DNA of 41,649 bases from a virus. Taxonomy: Duplodnaviria; Heunggongvirae; Uroviricota; Caudoviricetes. Position 1 is the stretch's first letter. The number at the start of each line of letters is the position of its first letter. Of the stretch, positions 1 to 41,649 are shown one piece after another. The translations under genes were made by a program, and so were the position numbers. The stretch is taken from IMG/VR virus record IMGVR_UViG_2660238349_000007. One strand, 5' to 3'. The notes under the pieces are model-generated. The model made no database searches, was not told the DNA's origin, and was given only the letters and a program-made list of their open reading frames with translations.

Positions 1-270
<270 letters not shown>

Positions 271-7114: not shown

Positions 7115-7804
7115 ATGACTGTGGGTAATAAGAGACAGCCTAATGGATTACCTGAATATTATTGTCACCGTGGTAACGACATAAAAGATGCGATAGTTCG
7201 GGATTTTATTATTCAGCCTGTTGCACACCTGAAACTTATTACTGGACAAACTAAAACCAGTTATTCCGGTTATCCGTTAACCGATCAGTACTATTGTTTT
7301 TCATTTAAAAAACGCTCTGATGAAAATTGTACAGGGGCTTTTTTCTGTGGTAGAGATGTTGCAAAGGATTTCATTCGGCGTATCGGTTGTACAGAGCTGC
7401 CGTTATTTAATCCTATGAAATCGGATACCAGTGCAGCAATAGAACGTTCCGGTTCTGGCTCAGGTAGTTCTGGTATTACTGTCAAGCCAAATGCTGACAA
7501 AAAGCTATTTATAGACGCAGCTCGTCTGTTAATGACGCTGTGGGATTCAACAAGTAAGGGACAAACCCCACTGGCGTCGGTTCTTAATGAAGCAATTTCT
7601 GGTGGTATAGATAAACCTCCAGAAATTAGACATGTAGTGGCGGTTAATACAATGTTGGGTAACACAAAAAATACTTTAACTGGTTTGCTGGATAAAGCAA
7701 GAGCGAAGTATCCTGATGTGTTATTCAGAGATTTTGATTTCACGCCTCTTAACGAGATTGTAAAACGTTCAAAATCATATAATAAGCATCCCCCTTGTTA
7801 TTGA
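7115..7804 (+). CDS. Hypothetical two-domain Cys-rich protein (moron on opposite strand)
   Basis: 229-aa ORF with strong RBS AAAGGAGA; Cys/His-rich N-terminal half, SGSGSGSSG linker, helical C-terminal half; AT-rich compared with flanks. Confidence 0.5.
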   Translation: MTVGNKRQPNGLPEYYCHRGNDIKDAIVRDFIIQPVAHLKLITGQTKTSYSGYPLTDQYYCFSFKKRSDENCTGAFFCGRDVAKDFIRRIGCTELPLFNPMKSDTSAAIERSGSGSGSSGITVKPNADKKLFIDAARLLMTLWDSTSKGQTPLASVLNEAISGGIDKPPEIRHVVAVNTMLGNTKNTLTGLLDKARAKYPDVLFRDFDFTPLNEIVKRSKSYNKHPPCY

Positions 7805-33717: not shown

Positions 33718-33720
33718 TTT

Positions 33721-33880
33721 TTGACGTCCATAATATTATGGATGAACTGTTGCCAATTGCGCTAAATTTAACAAAATAATACTGGTTAACGCATTTTTTG
33801 AACCATCTGTACACAGTAGTTGTCTATACTTTACCTTAAAGGTAAACTCTGCGCTCCACTGATGTTCACTATGGGAGGGG
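33721..33880 (+). promoter_or_regulatory. AT-rich promoter/operator region of the moron cassette
   Basis: TTGACG at 33721-33726; perfect 16-bp palindrome TCCATAATATTATGGA at 33727-33742; second palindrome TTTACCTT-a-AAGGTAAA at 33830-33846. Confidence 0.45.
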
Positions 33881-33882
33881 AT

Positions 33883-34122
33883 ATGAGGAAAATCGTTAAT
33901 CGTTACTTAGCCGCTGCCGGTAGTGTTATGGACATTATGCCGACTACAGATTACTGGCAATATGCTGCTTCTGGATCTGATTGTCGGGCAATAAGAAGTG
34001 ATGTTAAAGTCATTGCAAGTGACATGAACAGAGTTATCAGGTATGAGTTCAAAACCCCGCAAGCAGGCGGCCGTTCTCAAAAAGCATCAGGAAAACAAAG
34101 CGTCGCAAAAAGCCGTTCCTGA
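33883..34122 (+). CDS. Small hypothetical protein
   Basis: About 80-aa ORF with strong RBS GGGAGGGG before ATG 33883; 3' end overlaps the next ORF by 80 nt in another frame. Confidence 0.35.
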   Translation: MRKIVNRYLAAAGSVMDIMPTTDYWQYAASGSDCRAIRSDVKVIASDMNRVIRYEFKTPQAGGRSQKASGKQSVAKSRS

Positions 34123-34615
34123 TTCGGATGGTATCGACGAAGATATTGATTCCTCGGAATATGATGAGTCTCAGGAAGTAGTGGAAAAGCTGTCTGCAGT
34201 TGCCAACCTTGATCCTGAGCTAAAATCGAAGTTAACACCTGAACTTCTTGAGAGAGTTTCTAAGAACCCGAAGGTTATTGCCATGTTTCAGCAGGAGTCT
34301 TTTCAGGGACCACTCCCACCTCCTGCTATGCTCTTACAATATAATCAAATATTACCCGGCGGCGCTGAGAGAATTTTCAGGCTAACCGAAAAAGAGCAAG
34401 AGCATAGGCATAAGACGCAAAGTGATGCATTACTTGGTGCGGTTTCACGCGACAAACGTGGGCAATGGATGGGATTTTGCATTGCAATGGTAGTGCTTAT
34501 AATGGCTGCGTTTTTTGCTAATCGCGGTAACACTTGGTTCGCAGGTACTCTTGCTACTTTAGATCTCGTAGGATTAACTACAGTGTTTGTTTATGGTAGG
34601 AAGAAACCTAAATAA
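34043..34615 (+). CDS. DUF2335-like membrane protein
   Basis: 190-aa ORF with charged N-terminal region, conserved-looking LLQYNQILPGGAERIFRLTEKEQEHRH stretch and two C-terminal TM helices; family assignment from memory. Confidence 0.5.
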   Translation: MSSKPRKQAAVLKKHQENKASQKAVPDSDGIDEDIDSSEYDESQEVVEKLSAVANLDPELKSKLTPELLERVSKNPKVIAMFQQESFQGPLPPPAMLLQYNQILPGGAERIFRLTEKEQEHRHKTQSDALLGAVSRDKRGQWMGFCIAMVVLIMAAFFANRGNTWFAGTLATLDLVGLTTVFVYGRKKPK

Positions 34616-34630
34616 TCCATACATCCTTTC

Positions 34631-34654
34631 AAACCCGCTTCGGCGGGTTTTTTG
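34631..34654 (+). terminator. Intrinsic terminator ending the moron cassette
   Basis: CCCGC-ttcg-GCGGG hairpin followed by TTTTTT. Confidence 0.7.
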
Positions 34655-34672
34655 CTTTCTGGAGCCTACTAA

Positions 34673-35425: not shown

Positions 35426-35778
35426 TGCGATACAGACGTGAAGACGCCGATGGCGATTACACCTTTGGCAGCGGTGATGACACCTGGCTGATTAACTCAC
35501 CGGAGGCCGTGGCGCAGGCGGTAAAAACGCGATTCGAATTGTGGTATGGGCAATGGTTTCTCGACACCACTGAGGGGACTCCGTGGATCCAGTCCGTACT
35601 CGGTAAGCAGAAGCCGGAAACCTACAACCTGGCGATCCGTAAGCGCATTCTGGAAACGCAGGGCGTTAAATCAATCCTCTCTTTCAATACGACGGTGGAT
35701 ACCACGACCCGACGTGTCATGTTTTCCGCTGAAATCGACACTCTCTATGGAATAACGACTGTTACATCGGAGGCGTAA
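35425..35778 (+). CDS. Baseplate wedge protein (gpW/gp25-like)
   Basis: 117-aa ORF coupled between spike and J-like genes. Confidence 0.5.
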   Translation: MRYRREDADGDYTFGSGDDTWLINSPEAVAQAVKTRFELWYGQWFLDTTEGTPWIQSVLGKQKPETYNLAIRKRILETQGVKSILSFNTTVDTTTRRVMFSAEIDTLYGITTVTSEA

Positions 35779-36977
35779 TGGCTCTGAACCTTGATTCTCT
35801 CGGTTTATCTGCAAAGGTAACCGCGGAGGGGATCAGTGCGCCTGATTATCAGACGATACTCAGCACCCTGATTAGCTATTTTCAGCAGATTTATGGCAGT
35901 GATGCCTACCTCGAACCGGACAGCAAAGACGGCCAGATGGTGGCTCTGATGGCGCTGGCGATTCATGATGCCAATAATATGGCGATAACTGTCTACAACT
36001 GTTTTTCACCGGCAACCGGCTATGGGGCTGCACTGACCAGTAACGTGAAAATAAATGGTATTTCACGTAAAGGCGCGACGAACTCTACGGTTGATTTGCT
36101 TCTTACAGGAACTGCCGGAACAACCATCATTAATGGCAGCGTGAAAGACAGTAATAATGTGATATGGCGTTTGCCTGCTTCAGTGGTGGTCGGCGTGGAT
36201 GGTACAGTGATGGTGACCGCAACATGTTCCGTCAGTGGTGCAGTGGCGGCGCTGGCTGGAACTATCACTGAAATTAATACGCCAACCCGTGGCTGGGTTT
36301 CGGTAACTAATCCTGCTGCGGCTACTGTGGGCACTCCGGCAGAAACTGACGCTGAGTTACGTATCCGCCAGTCGCAAAGTGTTGCGTTGCCATCATTAAC
36401 CCCATTTGAAGCACTGGATGGTGCTGTTTCTAATGTTATCGGTGTAACCCGCCACAAACTCTATGAAAACGATACTGGTTCGGAGGACGGTAACGGATTA
36501 CCGCCACACTCTGTTGCTGTAATTGTGGATGGCGGTGATGTGACGGATATTGCTCAGGCTATCAGAGGGAATAAAGGCCAGGGGACAGCCACTCACGGTA
36601 CAACATCCGTTACGGTTCCGGATAAATACGGCAATCCCCATGTAATCAAATTCTCGCGTTCCAGTGATGTGCCTGTTTATGCCCGGATTAAATTAAAAGT
36701 TTTTACGGGTTATACCTCACAGATAGGACAGCAGATCCAGCAGGCTATTTCCGACTATATCAATAGTCTGACGATTGGTGATTCGGTCCTTTTGAGTCGC
36801 ATTTACTCACCGGCGAATCTTGGCGTGGTGAGTGGCGGGAATGCACGCTATTACGATATTCAGGAACTGACGATTGGGAAATCCCCGGGGGCTTTGTCGT
36901 CATCAAACATTGATATCAGATACAACGAATCTGCGTCCTGTACCCCGGAAAATATCGTTATAACGGTGGAGTCATGA
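35778..36977 (+). CDS. Baseplate protein J-like
   Basis: 399-aa ORF in canonical V-W-J-I order. Confidence 0.65.
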   Translation: MALNLDSLGLSAKVTAEGISAPDYQTILSTLISYFQQIYGSDAYLEPDSKDGQMVALMALAIHDANNMAITVYNCFSPATGYGAALTSNVKINGISRKGATNSTVDLLLTGTAGTTIINGSVKDSNNVIWRLPASVVVGVDGTVMVTATCSVSGAVAALAGTITEINTPTRGWVSVTNPAAATVGTPAETDAELRIRQSQSVALPSLTPFEALDGAVSNVIGVTRHKLYENDTGSEDGNGLPPHSVAVIVDGGDVTDIAQAIRGNKGQGTATHGTTSVTVPDKYGNPHVIKFSRSSDVPVYARIKLKVFTGYTSQIGQQIQQAISDYINSLTIGDSVLLSRIYSPANLGVVSGGNARYYDIQELTIGKSPGALSSSNIDIRYNESASCTPENIVITVES

Positions 36978-37654
36978 GCAAATACACCGAACTAATCACG
37001 AACTACCACGCCACCAAACCTAAATTTCTTGCACATGTTGATCTGATGACCCGGCCGCTTATTGATGTTGCGGCTGCCACCAGAGGGCTGATTACTGTAT
37101 TTGATATTGACTCTGCGGTTGGTGTGCAACTTGACATTCTTGGATTGTGGATCGGACGTAGCCGTGTTGTCAGCCAGCCTATCTCAGGTGTCTATTTCCG
37201 CTGGGATACCGACGGGCTTGGATATGATCAGGGGGTATGGCAGGGGCCATATGATCCTGATTCAGGATACATGTATCTCAGCGATGAAACTTATCGTGTC
37301 ATTCTTAAAGCGAAGATTGCGATTAATAACTGGGACGGACGGAATGATTCGCTTCCGGCAATCCTTGACGCTGCAACAGCAGGATCCGGACTGCGAATGC
37401 AGATTGTCGATAACCAGGACATGACGATATCGGTCTGGGTCTTTCCTGATACTGATATTTCAGATGTATCGCGTGAGTTAATTGCTGCAATTAAACAGGG
37501 ATATCTCACAGTAAAAGCCGCCGGGGTGTGGGCGGGTGGCATTGAAACACCTTCGGTGGAAACCCCATCGGAAGGTTCAAAATTTTTTGGTTTTGATATG
37601 GATAACGAATTTATCAGTGGTTTTGATCTAGGGGCATGGGGAGTATTACTCTGA
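36974..37654 (+). CDS. Tail protein I-like
   Basis: 226-aa ORF between J-like and tail fibre genes; stop overlaps the tail fibre start (TGATG). Confidence 0.55.
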
Positions 37655-38325
37655 TGGCAAAAAATGACTTTAAAGCATTCGCAACGGGTAAAAATGCCAA
37701 TGTTATGTCGCAGGAGGAATGGGAAGCGTTGCCTGCGCTTTTATCTGGATTTACAGCAGGGAAAGCCTCCAGTGCGCAAGTCAATAAGGTTATTCGGCAG
37801 GCCAGCTTTATTGCTGCAGCTCTGGCCCAGTTTGTAAGTGATAAAACGCAACGGGATGTGCTTGATAATGGTGATCTGCCCGGTTTTGTTGAATTGCTGG
37901 GATCGGGGTTTGCTGTTGAATACCTGAGCCGCAAGAATCCGTTTGGTGATATCAAATCGGATGGCACGGTGAAAACGGCTCTCGAAAACCTTGGTTTGGG
38001 AGAAGCGGCAAAACGAAATGTGGGAACAGGGGAAAATCAGATACCTGATATGTCATCATATGCATCAGGTTCAGGCTGGCGAAAAATGCCAGATGGTTCA
38101 ATTGAACAGTGGGGACGAATTAGTTTTCCTGGTGAACACGGGCCTGTATCCGCCAATGTTTCATTCCCAATTCCATTTACACAGACACCGGGCATTGTAA
38201 TTGTGTGCGATGGTGGTTTCGGGGGCGGGAATATGTGGGGGGCGACCAACTGGAGCACTACCGGCTTCATAGCTCACTGCAATTATGGTCTTGAAGGTGG
38301 TGCGTTTTTCGCTAAGGGCTGGTAA
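37654..38325 (+). CDS. Tail fibre protein (constant N-terminus plus variable C-terminus in current orientation)
   Basis: 224-aa ORF followed by a Tfa gene; the recombination site at 37986-38005 lies inside it and encodes NLGLGE. Confidence 0.65.
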
Positions 38326-38768
38326 TGATGAAATATCTGTACGTAAACAACCTGGCATATCCTTACGAACTTCAGTCTCTTTATGTTGAAAAAGGTGAAT
38401 GGCCTGAAGAAAAAGGTGTTGATATAGACGAAGTAATTTTCAGGGAATATTTCTATGATACACCACCAGAAGGAAAATACAGATGTGTCGGAGAGGATGG
38501 ACTGCCTGCATGGGCAGATATTCCTCCACCAACACGTGAAGAACAAATTGCATCAGCCGAAACTAAAAAGCAGCAATTGATTAACCAGGCCAACGAATAC
38601 ATCAACAGTAAACAATGGCCAGGTAAAGCATCAATTGGTCGTCTGAAAGGTGAGGAACTGGCGCAATATAATTTGTGGCTGGATTATCTGGACGCACTGG
38701 AACTGGTCGATACTTCCGGTGCGCCAGATATTGAATGGCCTACGCCTCCGGCAGTTCAGGCCAGATGA
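38325..38768 (+). CDS. Tail fibre assembly protein (Tfa/U-like)
   Basis: 147-aa ORF with C-terminal Tfa signature (…LWLDYLDALELVDTSGAPDIEWPTPP). Confidence 0.7.
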   Translation: MMKYLYVNNLAYPYELQSLYVEKGEWPEEKGVDIDEVIFREYFYDTPPEGKYRCVGEDGLPAWADIPPPTREEQIASAETKKQQLINQANEYINSKQWPGKASIGRLKGEELAQYNLWLDYLDALELVDTSGAPDIEWPTPPAVQAR

Positions 38769-39342
38769 CGTCCGGCGCTGTGCTGGTATCTGTTGCCGTC
38801 ACCGCGTCAATGTAATCCAGCACAGCGTTAAGTCGGGTGTTTTCTGGCTGCGTCAGCTTCCGCCCAGCCTGTAATTTCAGTTGAATCAGACTGATGGAAG
38901 CCATTGCAGCATCAATCAGCGACTGGCGCTGTGCTTCTGCCGCTTCTACTGCGGCGCTATGCTGTGCCTCGGTATCGGTCACCCATTTCTCACCATCCCA
39001 TTTATCGTATGGCGTTAATGGGGCGATAGTGGTTGTATTTTCGGGGTAATCACCCGGAGTTGTGATTTCTTTGGCGTCTCCCGTTTCGGTGTTATAGACG
39101 ATTTCTCCGCGATGGTCTGGCACATATTCCCATGAGTTTAAATCCGCAGAGCGGCAGATGGCATAACCAGCTTTATATGTTCCTGGTGCATCTAAACAGG
39201 AACATGCCGGAATACCGACACCAACAGCAAGATATTCAGTTGATGTGGAAATATATTCTCGTGTTTCACCATTATAATTATAGACAGTAATATCCCCCGC
39301 CTTCGTGGCAATAAACTCGCTATTTAATACGGCATTATCCAT
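38740..39342 (-). CDS. Alternative tail fibre assembly protein (U'-like)
   Basis: 200-aa ORF with the same C-terminal signature (…LNAVLDYIDAVTATDTSTAPDVIWPELP), inverted relative to the other Tfa. Confidence 0.7.
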   Translation of the reverse strand: MDNAVLNSEFIATKAGDITVYNYNGETREYISTSTEYLAVGVGIPACSCLDAPGTYKAGYAICRSADLNSWEYVPDHRGEIVYNTETGDAKEITTPGDYPENTTTIAPLTPYDKWDGEKWVTDTEAQHSAAVEAAEAQRQSLIDAAMASISLIQLKLQAGRKLTQPENTRLNAVLDYIDAVTATDTSTAPDVIWPELPEA

Positions 39343-39855
39343 TATGCAGCCCTCACGATGTAATTAAATGAAAGGTTACGAGGGCGCATTGATATCCATG
39401 CCCCGGTAAAATTATCCTCCGCTGTCCTTTGAGTACCCGTTATGGAGTTATCTGCTGATGCAGGAACATAATCGCTATTATTTCCTGCTTTAGGATTAGC
39501 TGGGTTTCCAACAGTTATAACAGAATCAGCAGTAGCAAAAGCGATACCTACTTTGACATTAGTATTCAGATCGTAACCGTAATAATCCTGCAAAGCTGTA
39601 CGAATAAATGTTGCAGCCTGACCACTTAGCAATGAACGCCCCGTATCAATCCCTCTAGAATCATCCCAGCCACGAATAAACTCACCACGTAAATCAGGCA
39701 ATTTATTTGTCGGGTAAGCCTTTGCCAGTTCCGGGTATTCTTCAGCAGAAAAAGCTGCTCCGTTGCATTTCAGCCAGCCTGTTGGAGGTGTCTCTGAAGG
39801 CCACGGAACAGGTGCACCAACAGGTAATGCTGAACCTTCTCCCAAACCAACGTTT
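39342..39855 (-). CDS. Alternative tail fibre C-terminal segment (Sv'-like), promoterless in this orientation
   Basis: Minus-strand ORF whose 5' end is the right inversion site; reading frame across the site (NVGLGEG) matches the left site (NLGLGEA). Confidence 0.55.
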
Positions 39856-39917: not shown

Positions 39918-40313
39918 ATGCTTATTGGCTATGTCCGCGTATCAACAAATGACCAGAATACAGAATTGCAGCGTAACGCGCTGGAGTGCGCAGGATGTGA
40001 ACTGATTTTTGAAGATAAAATCAGCGGAACAAAATCAGCCAGACCGGGATTGAAAAAACTGCTCAGAACGCTATCAGAAGGAGATACGCTGGTTGTCTGG
40101 AAGCTGGACAGACTGGGGCGCAGTGTGCGGCATCTTGTCGTGCTGGTGGAGGAGTTGCGCGAACAAGGTGTTAATTTTAGTAGTTATGTTATTACAGGTG
40201 GGGGATTTCTCCCCCTTATGCAGATTTTCTCGTTAACTATTGGCGAAGTGGCCATATTTTTCTGTTTTTTAAAAAACTATCTTCAACTATATAACTGCAA
40301 CAATGTTCACTAA
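39918..40313 (+). pseudogene. Truncated serine DNA invertase (Gin/Hin/Pin family)
   Basis: First ~87 aa match the invertase catalytic domain (MLIGYVRVSTNDQNTELQRNAL…LVVWKLDRLGRS…GVNF); downstream sequence diverges into AT-rich unrelated sequence with no HTH domain. Confidence 0.7.
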
Positions 40314-41082
40314 GGCCATAAAAACTAATTATTCCATATTTATGAGAAGCTATATCAGACAGTTCTGCTAATACTGTGGCAAGCCAACGAGCGATGCTAA
40401 GAGAATAGAATCTTCCCCACTTTTGAACAATGGTATTTTGTCCAGTACGGATGGAGGCTGATATAAGGTCTTGCATAATGTTGGTACTTTCATTCATATA
40501 CATGACCGTTGTATACGGTGAAAGAGTGGCATTGATAAACCTAGCATTTTCTTCAACACGTCTTTGTTCAACTGTATAATAATAATGTTTTTCAAGGATA
40601 CTCTCGGCTACTTCTCCCCACCATTTATTAATAGGTTCATTATTGGTTAAATTGGGGCTGCTTAATGAGGAGAAATTTGCGTAACGTCCCCGTCGGGCAT
40701 CAGCAAAGGAATCTAAACATTCAAGTATTTTGTAGGTAATTTTATGTGTAGGACGTGAATATCTCAGAGATAGTTGCATTTTTTTAGAAATACTATCAAC
40801 CTCGTTGGTTAATTCAATGAGCTTGTGTCCAAATTTTCTTACAATATTCTCGTCAGGCATTTTTCCTTTGTGTTCAATGGCATAGTGTGCAACAAGTATT
40901 AGTTTAGCAAGTCTCTCAAAACCTACAGAAAGCCCAAAAAATGCTGTGTAATATTCACCTATTTTGTCTGCATAATTGGCTTTACCTATGGCTGTTGCCC
41001 CAGAACCAATGAGCTGTGTTACTAAAGATGCTTCTCGGCCCAGAGCGTGCCATGCTGGAATATCCCAGGGATTTTTATTCAC
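40237..41082 (-). CDS. Hypothetical cargo protein, AT-rich (candidate accessory or defence gene)
   Basis: 281-aa ORF in AT-rich DNA replacing the 3' part of the invertase gene; no motif I can assign. Confidence 0.5.
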   Translation of the reverse strand: MNKNPWDIPAWHALGREASLVTQLIGSGATAIGKANYADKIGEYYTAFFGLSVGFERLAKLILVAHYAIEHKGKMPDENIVRKFGHKLIELTNEVDSISKKMQLSLRYSRPTHKITYKILECLDSFADARRGRYANFSSLSSPNLTNNEPINKWWGEVAESILEKHYYYTVEQRRVEENARFINATLSPYTTVMYMNESTNIMQDLISASIRTGQNTIVQKWGRFYSLSIARWLATVLAELSDIASHKYGIISFYGLSEHCCSYIVEDSFLKNRKIWPLRQ

Positions 41083-41210
41083 TTTATTATTTTCCTTTGC
41101 TCATAAATTTAAATTGTTTGAGTATCTCATAAAATATAAGGAGGTGGTTAAGGTTGTTGATCGCATATAATAGCTATTGAAAGTCAAGAACTCGGTTTTA
41201 TGTTCTACCA

Positions 41211-41249
41211 CTAATTAATATATTGTGAGTCTGACAATATATTAATTAG
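41211..41249. repeat. Perfect 16-bp inverted repeat with 7-bp spacer
   Basis: CTAATTAATATATTGT-gagtctg-ACAATATATTAATTAG in the intergenic region between the two cargo ORFs. Confidence 0.6.
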
Positions 41250-41382
41250 TATGATCAAACCAGCCATCAACTGATTCCTTGTATCTTTCAGAGTCTCCAG
41301 AACAAAAGCCTTAACGAATTCCTTATTTGTGAGTGCATTACAAAAAGCCATTGTTGCAGGGAACGAGTATAAAACTCGCCAG

Positions 41383-41649
41383 CTACTGGAGCAGGCTACC
41401 TGATTGTCGATCGATTCCTGCGTCCATATAGTCGATGGTCTTCTGGAGCTCTTCGATTAGGGCAACAGCTTTTGCTCGAGAAATACATATTAGTTGATCC
41501 GGAAATTCTTGTAAGGGCCAGTTTGGTATACAGGCCATGTTATCAGTGAAGGATGCAGACAAGTAAACTTCATTGGTAACCAGAGAATAGCTTACCTCAA
41601 AATTGGTGAGTTCCGGCAAACTGCTAACGTTTGACTCTTTTCTGCGCAT
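41383..41649 (-). CDS. Hypothetical protein, possibly truncated by the window edge
   Basis: 88-aa ORF whose ATG coincides with the last 3 bases of the window; AT-rich. Confidence 0.3.
   Translation of the reverse strand: MRRKESNVSSLPELTNFEVSYSLVTNEVYLSASFTDNMACIPNWPLQEFPDQLICISRAKAVALIEELQKTIDYMDAGIDRQSGSLLQ

Follow-up and report, generated by a model that had tools for sequence, protein, structure and literature searches.

What has taken the place of the second half of a tail-fibre invertase gene at the end of an Escherichia coli prophage, and what might it do for the cell or for the element that carries it? The question is raised by a 41,649-nucleotide (nt) stretch of viral DNA (IMG/VR record IMGVR_UViG_2660238349_000007, Caudoviricetes; hereafter the window), which is a complete temperate myovirus prophage of 41.6 kb, of the SEN34-like (Brunovirus-type) kind, inserted in the 5' end of yfhL. 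Near its right-hand end, the open reading frame (ORF) of a serine invertase runs into AT-rich DNA that carries, on the opposite strand, an ORF of 281 amino acids (aa). An earlier note, made from the letters alone, had singled out this region as a candidate locus for an accessory or defence function, a choice that is supported by the defence-type genomic signature of the homologues, from which the function is inferred. On present evidence the 281-aa gene does not represent a categorically new type of system; it is most likely a credible, uncharacterised candidate for a new family among the HEPN-type solo or restriction-modification (R-M)-linked abortive-infection nucleases. We lean, by a modest degree, towards its product being a defence or abortive-infection effector, and are somewhat less confident of the specific ribonuclease (RNase) chemistry.

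The breakpoint in the invertase gene lies between 40184 and 40185, after codon 89, where DNA similarity to intact P1-type cin and to intact pinE genes from sister prophages ends. Over the first 89 codons, identity to the N-terminal part of these genes is 84-92% at the DNA level. The ORF at 39918-40313 matches PF00239 over residues 3-89 (profile positions 2-98 of 145) and phrog_125 over residues 1-89, and RefSeq lists it as a pseudogene with a missing C-terminus. Its serine-bearing start, YVRVSTNDQ, is kept, the resolvase catalytic domain is incomplete, the C-terminal helix-turn-helix (HTH) and the end of the E helix are absent, and residues 90-131 match no family. The codons past 89 overlap the 3' end of the 281-aa gene on the other strand and, judged by these alignments, are not a real coding extension. 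GC content is 37.7% in 40185-41649 versus 50.1% in 1-40184, making this the lowest-GC 1.46 kb of the window, at ∼3.3 standard deviations below the mean. The earlier note had proposed that the invertase match stops part-way and that foreign AT-rich DNA replaces the 3' half of the gene; both points stand, and a full-length invertase with a divergent C-terminus is excluded. Recombination joined the foreign DNA to the invertase gene at 40184/40185, removed the last ∼95 invertase codons and most of a dinI-like gene on the other side, and installed one self-contained gene with its own ribosome-binding site (Table 1).

Comparison with relatives indicates that the 281-aa ORF is a real gene under purifying selection. 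It starts with GTG, preceded at 10 nt by an AAGGA Shine-Dalgarno sequence, and the ratio of nonsynonymous to synonymous substitution rates (dN/dS) came to 0.05-0.14 in comparisons with homologues from seven other genomes; in an eighth comparison, synonymous sites were saturated. All 44 E. coli copies are intact and at least 98.6% identical, and the start codon and Shine-Dalgarno sequence are conserved. The GC content of the gene is 5-14 points under that of the surrounding DNA in every host examined. A word-indexed search returned 486 homologues and an exhaustive profile search 959 clusters at 50% identity, of stand-alone proteins with a length of ∼275 aa; among the best 150 listed relatives, nearly all are full-length and stand-alone at 265-290 aa, or else shorter fragments. 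The family ranges over Gamma- and Alphaproteobacteria and occurs sporadically in Mycobacterium, Nitrospinota, Binatia, Gemmatimonadota and Desulfovibrionaceae, with members at 44-60% identity in Actinobacteria (Mycobacterium paraense, locus L074) and in the last four groups (L051-L053, L073). This patchy distribution points to wide horizontal transfer. Homology to relatives in Enterobacter, Serratia, Klebsiella, Chromohalobacter and others consists of the ORF and at most 37 nt upstream, and 41083-41119 is the only flank common to homologues in other genera (blastn alignments end at 41119 and 41098, in Enterobacter and Serratia). Sigma-70-like hexamers are found at 41160-41133 and 41113-41086, and are weak in a promoter scan (9/12 matches).

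The protein belongs to no known family, as the earlier note had suspected, and no housekeeping or phage structural family claims it: searches of Pfam, NCBIfam, PADLOC and PHROGs were empty. In PADLOC-DB v2.0.0 there was nothing at E up to 1 for the protein itself and nothing meaningful for 45 divergent members, and Pfam and PADLOC together gave no match for 33 close and 45 divergent relatives (78 members). Two family members matched CARF_HEPN_mCpol, at E 0.014 only, and a profile search against PDB sequences returned noise only. Every source labels the protein 'hypothetical'; its accession and name were not found in the full-text papers searched, and the accession and two motif strings are absent from the DefensePredictor supplements.

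Clues to function come from the predicted structure. An AlphaFold2 (AF2) model built with close homologues has a predicted local distance difference test (pLDDT) score of 82, and a second, built with the 45 divergent members, reaches pLDDT 95.6 and a predicted template modelling (pTM) score of 0.93. The model is all-alpha, apart from one small hairpin, and has the four-helix up-and-down core of the HEPN fold. About 20 of its top 60 structural matches fall in the HEPN/KNTase-C superfamily, including YutE, the SO_3166 HepN toxin, AF0298, sacsin, MtlR, Csm6, AbiV, AbiA and HepS. Among members at 25-48% identity, eight residues are invariant: E17, E56, R57, K60, H86, Y134, W154 and R232. E56 and K60, invariant in 45/45 divergent members, lie in an E-R-x-x-K stretch on helix 42-70 and supply the Ex3[KR] motif, which is the second hallmark of many HEPN families (PMC3710099). 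H86, equally invariant (45/45), is located at the N-terminus of helix 88-101 and follows a basic position, residue 82, at which 22 of the 45 sequences have R, 22 have K and one has Q. Because the AF2 fold, E56-x3-K60 and an H86 placed after a basic residue coincide, the N-terminal ∼130 residues can be called HEPN-like with fair confidence, and a metal-independent endoribonuclease activity, which in HEPN proteins usually resides in a dimer, is predicted. A tandem-HEPN arrangement was ruled out, as hhalign of the N-terminal against the C-terminal half shows no internal duplication. The protein might instead be a non-catalytic HEPN-like binder of a ligand or of RNA, or a regulator, comparable to MtlR/YggD or to the substrate-binding domains of nucleotidyltransferases, with a role in lysogenic conversion or regulation. 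We consider this unlikely, since an invariant histidine together with Ex3K at such low identity is the catalytic HEPN pattern, and since the gene, which moves singly with its short flank, has no conserved partner to regulate.

The genomic neighbourhoods of homologues were surveyed in 14 contexts fetched individually and in 33 species-level loci. As far as gene order can tell, the link to type I R-M systems is the most telling association of the family. At 11 independent loci a homologue is found inside or directly after a type I R-M operon. In Pseudidiomarina and in an integrase island of Enterobacter it directly follows hsdR; on a metagenomic contig it separates hsdS from hsdR, the junctions overlapping or spanning 13 nt; and five Alphaproteobacteria (four Sphingomonadales and a metagenome-assembled genome of Robiginitomaculum) have the order hsdS-X-hsdR. 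In 8/33 species-level loci, the two genes closest to the homologue on either side include co-oriented type I R-M subunits. Domains of type I R-M systems clearly outnumber every other neighbour family in this set; apart from them, just the CAP12/Pycsar TIR domain and Fic recur, with two neighbours each. For the window copy, neither the prophage end nor the chromosome flanking it contains an R-M gene.

Other homologues reside in prophages and plasmids. In Serratia the gene is found in the P2 gpA-gpQ hotspot (defined in PMC9122126), once beside a PvuII R-M system; in Morganella it fills the P2 slot between the tail-fibre assembly and sheath genes, in Citrobacter it follows P2 ogr, and in Klebsiella it lies at a lambdoid prophage end. 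One homologue occurs in a lambdoid nin region near a KwaB-like gene, one ∼3.5 kb from Thoeris, one among VapBC modules and one adjoining IS110. A 33%-identical homologue of 273 aa, WP_000901799, is part of the backbone/maintenance region of ∼130 IncX-type conjugative plasmids; on the IncX1 plasmid NZ_CP024290 (L030, 3968-4789) it stands between a resolvase and hns/hha/topB genes.

The slot that the gene occupies in the window is filled differently in related prophages. A baseplate module (35778-37654) is present in 332/5426 complete E. coli genomes, at ∼95% identity or more and at least 80% coverage, versus 44 with the 281-aa gene. In E. coli 98201, pinE is intact, and the gene after it, on the minus strand, encodes a LEM-3-like GIY-YIG protein (L038, 11756-12529), itself another nuclease-type candidate accessory gene; in a further state, the chromosome begins directly after an intact pinE. 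At the yfhL/yfhH site of E. coli S1-IND-01-A (L041), the slot holds a serine acetyltransferase, an invertase fragment comprising only the C-terminal HTH, and a 215-aa gene without assigned function. One sister prophage carries an IpaH effector, and SEN34 an O-antigen-type acyltransferase. The HTH-only fragment is the reverse of the remnant in the window, so cargo turnover struck the invertase independently from the other side. These alignments show the slot between the invertible segment and the attR-proximal gene to be a true cargo hotspot in this phage lineage. The earlier note had called the region past the tail-fibre genes a hotspot for anti-phage and accessory genes; for this lineage the hotspot is real, and its cargo is not exclusively defensive. 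The slot resembles the P2 old/tin and Z/fun loci and moron slots (PMC9122126) in having a fixed position at which sister phages carry unrelated accessory genes, and homologues of the 281-aa gene occupy both P2 slots. It differs in belonging to a SEN34-like myovirus, where it extends from the invertase to the attR-proximal gene, and in that the insertion destroyed the invertase.

Among known defence proteins, PrrC may be the closest parallel for the homologues embedded in R-M operons. The prrC gene of the EcoprrI locus sits between hsdS and hsdR, and co-occurrence with Fic and RhuM is typical of PrrC/RloC neighbourhoods (PMC3710099). Homologues of the 281-aa gene share the hsdS-X-hsdR position and have Fic/RhuM in the same neighbourhoods, and the prrC-like position suggests a latent RNase that backs up restriction. 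Unlike PrrC and RloC, which are anticodon nucleases with HEPN as their C-terminal domain (PMC3710099), the 281-aa protein has no N-terminal ABC-ATPase regulatory domain (it is all-alpha and matches no P-loop family) and shares no sequence similarity with them; the window copy further differs from prrC in lacking an R-M neighbour. In lifestyle, the closest characterised parallel would be HepS, a solo HEPN abortive-infection protein carried by the Gifsy-1 prophage of Salmonella (PMC13043305). HepS has no detectable sequence similarity to the 281-aa protein. Its canonical RX4-6H motif (R100-H105, PMC13043305) contrasts with the [RK]x3H and ERxxK of the family, its chain has 218 residues whereas the 281-aa protein has an extra C-terminal domain of ∼130 aa, and it is not reported as R-M-linked, unlike the homologues described here. 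The stand-alone HEPN abortive-infection proteins of the AbiV, ApeA and AbiD/F (Abi_2) types differ in length and motif pattern, and 0/78 family members match their Pfam or PADLOC models.

By inference from fold, residues and neighbourhoods, the 281-aa protein would be a stand-alone HEPN-like, latent, metal-independent endoribonuclease, in which H86 would act as the catalytic base, aided by E56, R57, K60 and R/K82. The lysogen would produce the protein, and a cue from an infecting phage would activate it. Once active, it would cleave RNA of the host, with tRNA or mRNA as the most plausible target, and translation would halt before the invader finishes its cycle; such an abortive infection would shield both the sister cells and the resident prophage. 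R-M-linked homologues would probably form a second line of defence, set off by failure or inhibition of restriction, in keeping with PrrC-like logic.

Several observations weigh against this proposal. A Foldseek search against the PDB gave nothing significant, and neither sequence nor profile comparison ties the protein to a HEPN family of Pfam, a PADLOC model or a solved structure. The spacing in [RK]82-x3-H86 is one residue short of the canonical Rx4-6H, with R and K equally frequent as the basic residue; comparable deviations occur in AbiV, AF0298 and Parep1/8 (PMC3710099). To the C-terminal half (∼150-281), which includes the invariant W154 and R232, no fold could be assigned. Some homologues occur singly amid housekeeping or metabolic genes, the IncX1 plasmid-backbone branch would also fit another role in conflicts between elements, and the cargo of the slot in sister prophages includes acetyltransferases and IpaH, which are not defensive.

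The abortive-infection proposal can be extended to the family as a whole, which might constitute a portable 'restriction guard': a minimal HEPN-like RNase that lacks regulatory domains, an ATPase included. Within type I R-M operons, the RNase would be kept latent by the Hsd complex or would monitor it, and would fire when phage anti-restriction proteins disable Hsd. Temperate phages would have captured it repeatedly, in P2 hotspots and in the tail-fibre/att slot, where it would act alone or exploit the type I system of the host. We regard this extension as possible and rather doubtful.

The same neighbourhoods bear on a different role, that of a counter-defence or inter-element competition factor, which would aid its own mobile element by modulating restriction or excluding competitors, and not by killing cells. 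The R-M linkage could then mean regulation of restriction, and it would agree with this role that the gene is carried by several prophage types and an integrative island, and that the IncX homologue is placed in a plasmid maintenance region. Anti-restriction genes, however, are not normally co-directional between hsdS and hsdR of the system they target, chromosomal singletons occur outside mobile elements, and the invariant E, R, K and H on a HEPN-like core look enzymatic. A competition factor is, in our judgement, quite improbable, and the abortive-infection proposal remains the one we favour.

The location of the gene within the prophage is well defined. The 1.8 kb at the window end are 100% identical to 4 complete E. 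coli chromosomes and 96-99% identical to ∼40 others, and are also matched by three induced phages, vB_EcoM-606R2, -611R5 and -683R1. As annotated in RefSeq for one identical strain, the prophage begins on the left with yfhL and a tyrosine integrase, followed by the replication, lysis, head and tail modules, the invertible tail-fibre segment and then the region 40180-41649. The 18-bp att core TTCACACATATCACAATT is found at 213-230 of the window, with a second copy at the equivalent of 41859-41876, inside the 5' end of yfhL, and similarity to prophage-free E. coli restarts ∼210 nt past the window end. Region 40180-41649 is therefore wholly inside the prophage, at its attR end. The earlier note had suggested a defence-gene scan that takes in 10 kb downstream; more cargo there was ruled out, as only chromosome follows (yfhH, pgpC, tadA). 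The prophage inserts within the first ∼17 codons of yfhL and provides a replacement 5' end (window 213-261; locus L001 14010-14057), so that yfhL, which begins MSLLITKR in the window versus MALLITKK in the displaced original at attR, remains intact in the lysogen.

The crossover inverted repeat TTGGTTTGGGAGAAG, found by script at 37991-38005 and 39836-39850, bounds the invertible segment, within which tail-fibre and tfa ORFs form convergent pairs. The N-terminal invertase codons and the adjoining fibre segment with its crossover repeats are as in Pin/Cin/Gin/Hin systems; the difference is that everything past codon 89 is gone, that is, the rest of the catalytic domain and the HTH. With only 89 of ∼185 codons left, the prophage is, going by its own sequence, unable to flip its fibre segment. 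The sister phage vB_EcoM-611R5 has the identical invertase truncation and the opposite orientation of the fibre segment (window 38464-39021), which means either that flipping is older than the truncation or that it is driven in trans by related invertases that the host harbours. Gin, Cin, Pin and Hin can substitute for one another. In the comparison with vB_EcoM-611R5 (L002), the invertase remnant is more diverged (88%) than the adjoining cargo (98.8%).

The DNA to the right of the breakpoint was first described as a single cargo island. Comparison with relatives indicates that it is a mosaic and not one unit. A sister prophage at the same yfhL/yfhH site, with other cargo, shares 41368-41649 at 95% identity and nothing leftward, which sets the right boundary of the variable part at 41367. 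The description thus holds for the ∼1.2 kb at 40185-41367 that include the 281-aa gene; the right third is backbone and the middle is a dinI pseudogene. The last ORF, taken in the earlier note to be truncated at the window edge, proves to be complete: it encodes 88 aa, and the final three bases of the window are its ATG; it matches phrog_17793 over 1-88 of 91 and has the same length as SEN34_31. Its homologues in Salmonella phage SEN34 and in phage Fostie adjoin attP/integrase, and on this comparison the gene is conserved phage backbone beside attR/attP and not cargo.

In Fostie, the gene directly after the 88-aa homologue is an intact dinI. The counterpart in the window has ∼75% nucleotide identity to annotated DinI-like genes in ∼700 E. 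coli genomes, only the C-terminal ∼40 codons align, the N-terminal half is gone and there are two 1-nt deletions, leaving the ∼82-aa frame broken. A 46-aa ORF (41211-41351) was rejected as a gene, as it is this decayed fragment. A LexA-box-like site, CTGTGATTATGTACAG, is located 15-30 nt upstream of the 88-aa gene, just past the window end (L001 13815-13830), and is the only CTGT-N8-ACAG in 25.8 kb. It suggests that the att-proximal 88-aa/dinI backbone module is probably SOS-controlled, and SOS-driven transcription of this module might read through into the cargo gene.

Two inverted structures reported in the earlier note, a hairpin at the junction and a long palindrome, are both present. The GC hairpin lies 21 nt beyond the stop codon of the cargo gene, in a 61-nt stretch that folds with -14.6 kcal/mol (z -2.6, minus strand). 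It has no U-tract and received no terminator call, and is possibly a 3' stabiliser or a weak terminator. The palindrome folds with -18 to -20 kcal/mol (z -4.4 to -4.6), and reaches with its upper arm (41234-41250) into the 3' end of the dinI remnant. It has no second copy in the window, and the sister prophage with the same att site lacks it; a repeated operator was ruled out, as the half-site does not recur in the window. The palindrome could represent a stem-loop at the end of a transcript, or the scar of a recombination event. An Rfam scan of the island found no family, the sole match being a chance miRNA on the palindrome. Hairpin and palindrome were also rejected as parts of a mobile cassette, as cross-genus homology stops within 37 nt of the ORF.

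The palindrome invites the question whether the 281-aa protein is the toxin of an unrecognised addiction module, with an upstream small RNA or peptide as antitoxin, perhaps involving this structure; such a module would stabilise the prophage end and have no anti-phage role. The strength of the palindrome, the 300 nt of non-coding AT-rich DNA upstream of the gene and the homologue among VapBC modules would agree with this, but across genera neither the upstream region nor the palindrome or hairpin is conserved, no small neighbour is conserved across ∼45 loci, and there is no Rfam match, all of which make an addiction toxin very unlikely. That the island is inert recombination debris, its ORF unexpressed or non-functional here, might be supposed from its place between two pseudogenes, the invertase and dinI remnants, at a decaying prophage end, and is essentially excluded by the selection data and by the integrity of the gene in all 44 E. 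coli carriers.

Two further variable regions were observed elsewhere in the window. A second variable slot is present in the tail module (∼33718-34672), flanked by the spike gene and by a small gene of the baseplate region. A DUF2335 membrane protein occupies it here (ORF 34043-34615), and sister prophages with near-identical flanks have DUF4282, Arc/Arc/antirepressor, a YafO-toxin pair or other genes without assigned function. A 229-aa ORF on the plus strand (7115-7804), antisense to its neighbours and located between an Nmad5-like gene and a DNA polymerase gene, has no Pfam or PADLOC match; it lies in the only other stretch of the window below 40% GC and may be another cargo gene.

Table 1. 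Features at the right-hand end of the prophage, with positions in the window, and loci at which homologues of the 281-aa gene adjoin type I R-M genes.
Feature	Position	Strand	Basis or remark
Invertible tail-fibre segment: alternative fibre C-termini and assembly genes	37991-39850	.	Inverted repeat found by script
Invertase remnant, codons 1-89 of a Pin/Cin/Gin-type serine invertase	39918-40184	+	PF00239, phrog_125, DNA alignments, RefSeq pseudogene
Read-through tail of the invertase ORF, 42 unrelated codons	40185-40313	+	Without similarity to any invertase
GC hairpin GGGGGA-TTTC-TCCCCC, 6-bp stem, 4-nt loop	40200-40215	.	15 nt inside the junction
Cargo gene, 281 aa (WP_001039127 / A0A0V9G3J7)	40237-41082	-	All-alpha in the model, predicted HEPN-like N-terminal core
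Leader and putative promoter of the cargo gene	41083-41160	-	Sequence read, blastn, promoter scan
AT-rich palindrome, 20-nt arms, 95% complementarity, 1-nt spacer	41210-41250	.	Repeat finder
dinI-like 3' fragment, ∼40 codons, two frameshifts	41245-41365	-	∼75% nt identity, alignment to WP_001217553
Complete 88-aa gene, phrog_17793 (function not annotated)	41383-41649	-	phrog_17793 match, SEN34_31
Homologue between hsdS and hsdR			Loci L034, L063, L067, L069, L070, L072
Homologue after hsdR or hsdS			Loci L004, L033, L059, L050, L057

New single-gene HEPN-type defence candidates are now found often. If the inference made here is true, a family of ∼960 clusters at 50% identity that is absent from Pfam would gain a function, and there would be one more solo HEPN-type immunity protein to study. 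Its two habitats, the prrC position in type I R-M operons and solitary residence in prophage slots, would make it a convenient system for studying how an RNase is coupled to restriction and how such genes are captured by phages. The analysis also documents the tail-fibre/att region of SEN34-like coliphages as a cargo hotspot, in which cargo turnover has repeatedly destroyed the fibre invertase. Should the family prove to guard restriction, PrrC-type second-line immunity would be far more widespread, and simpler, than its single classical example suggests.

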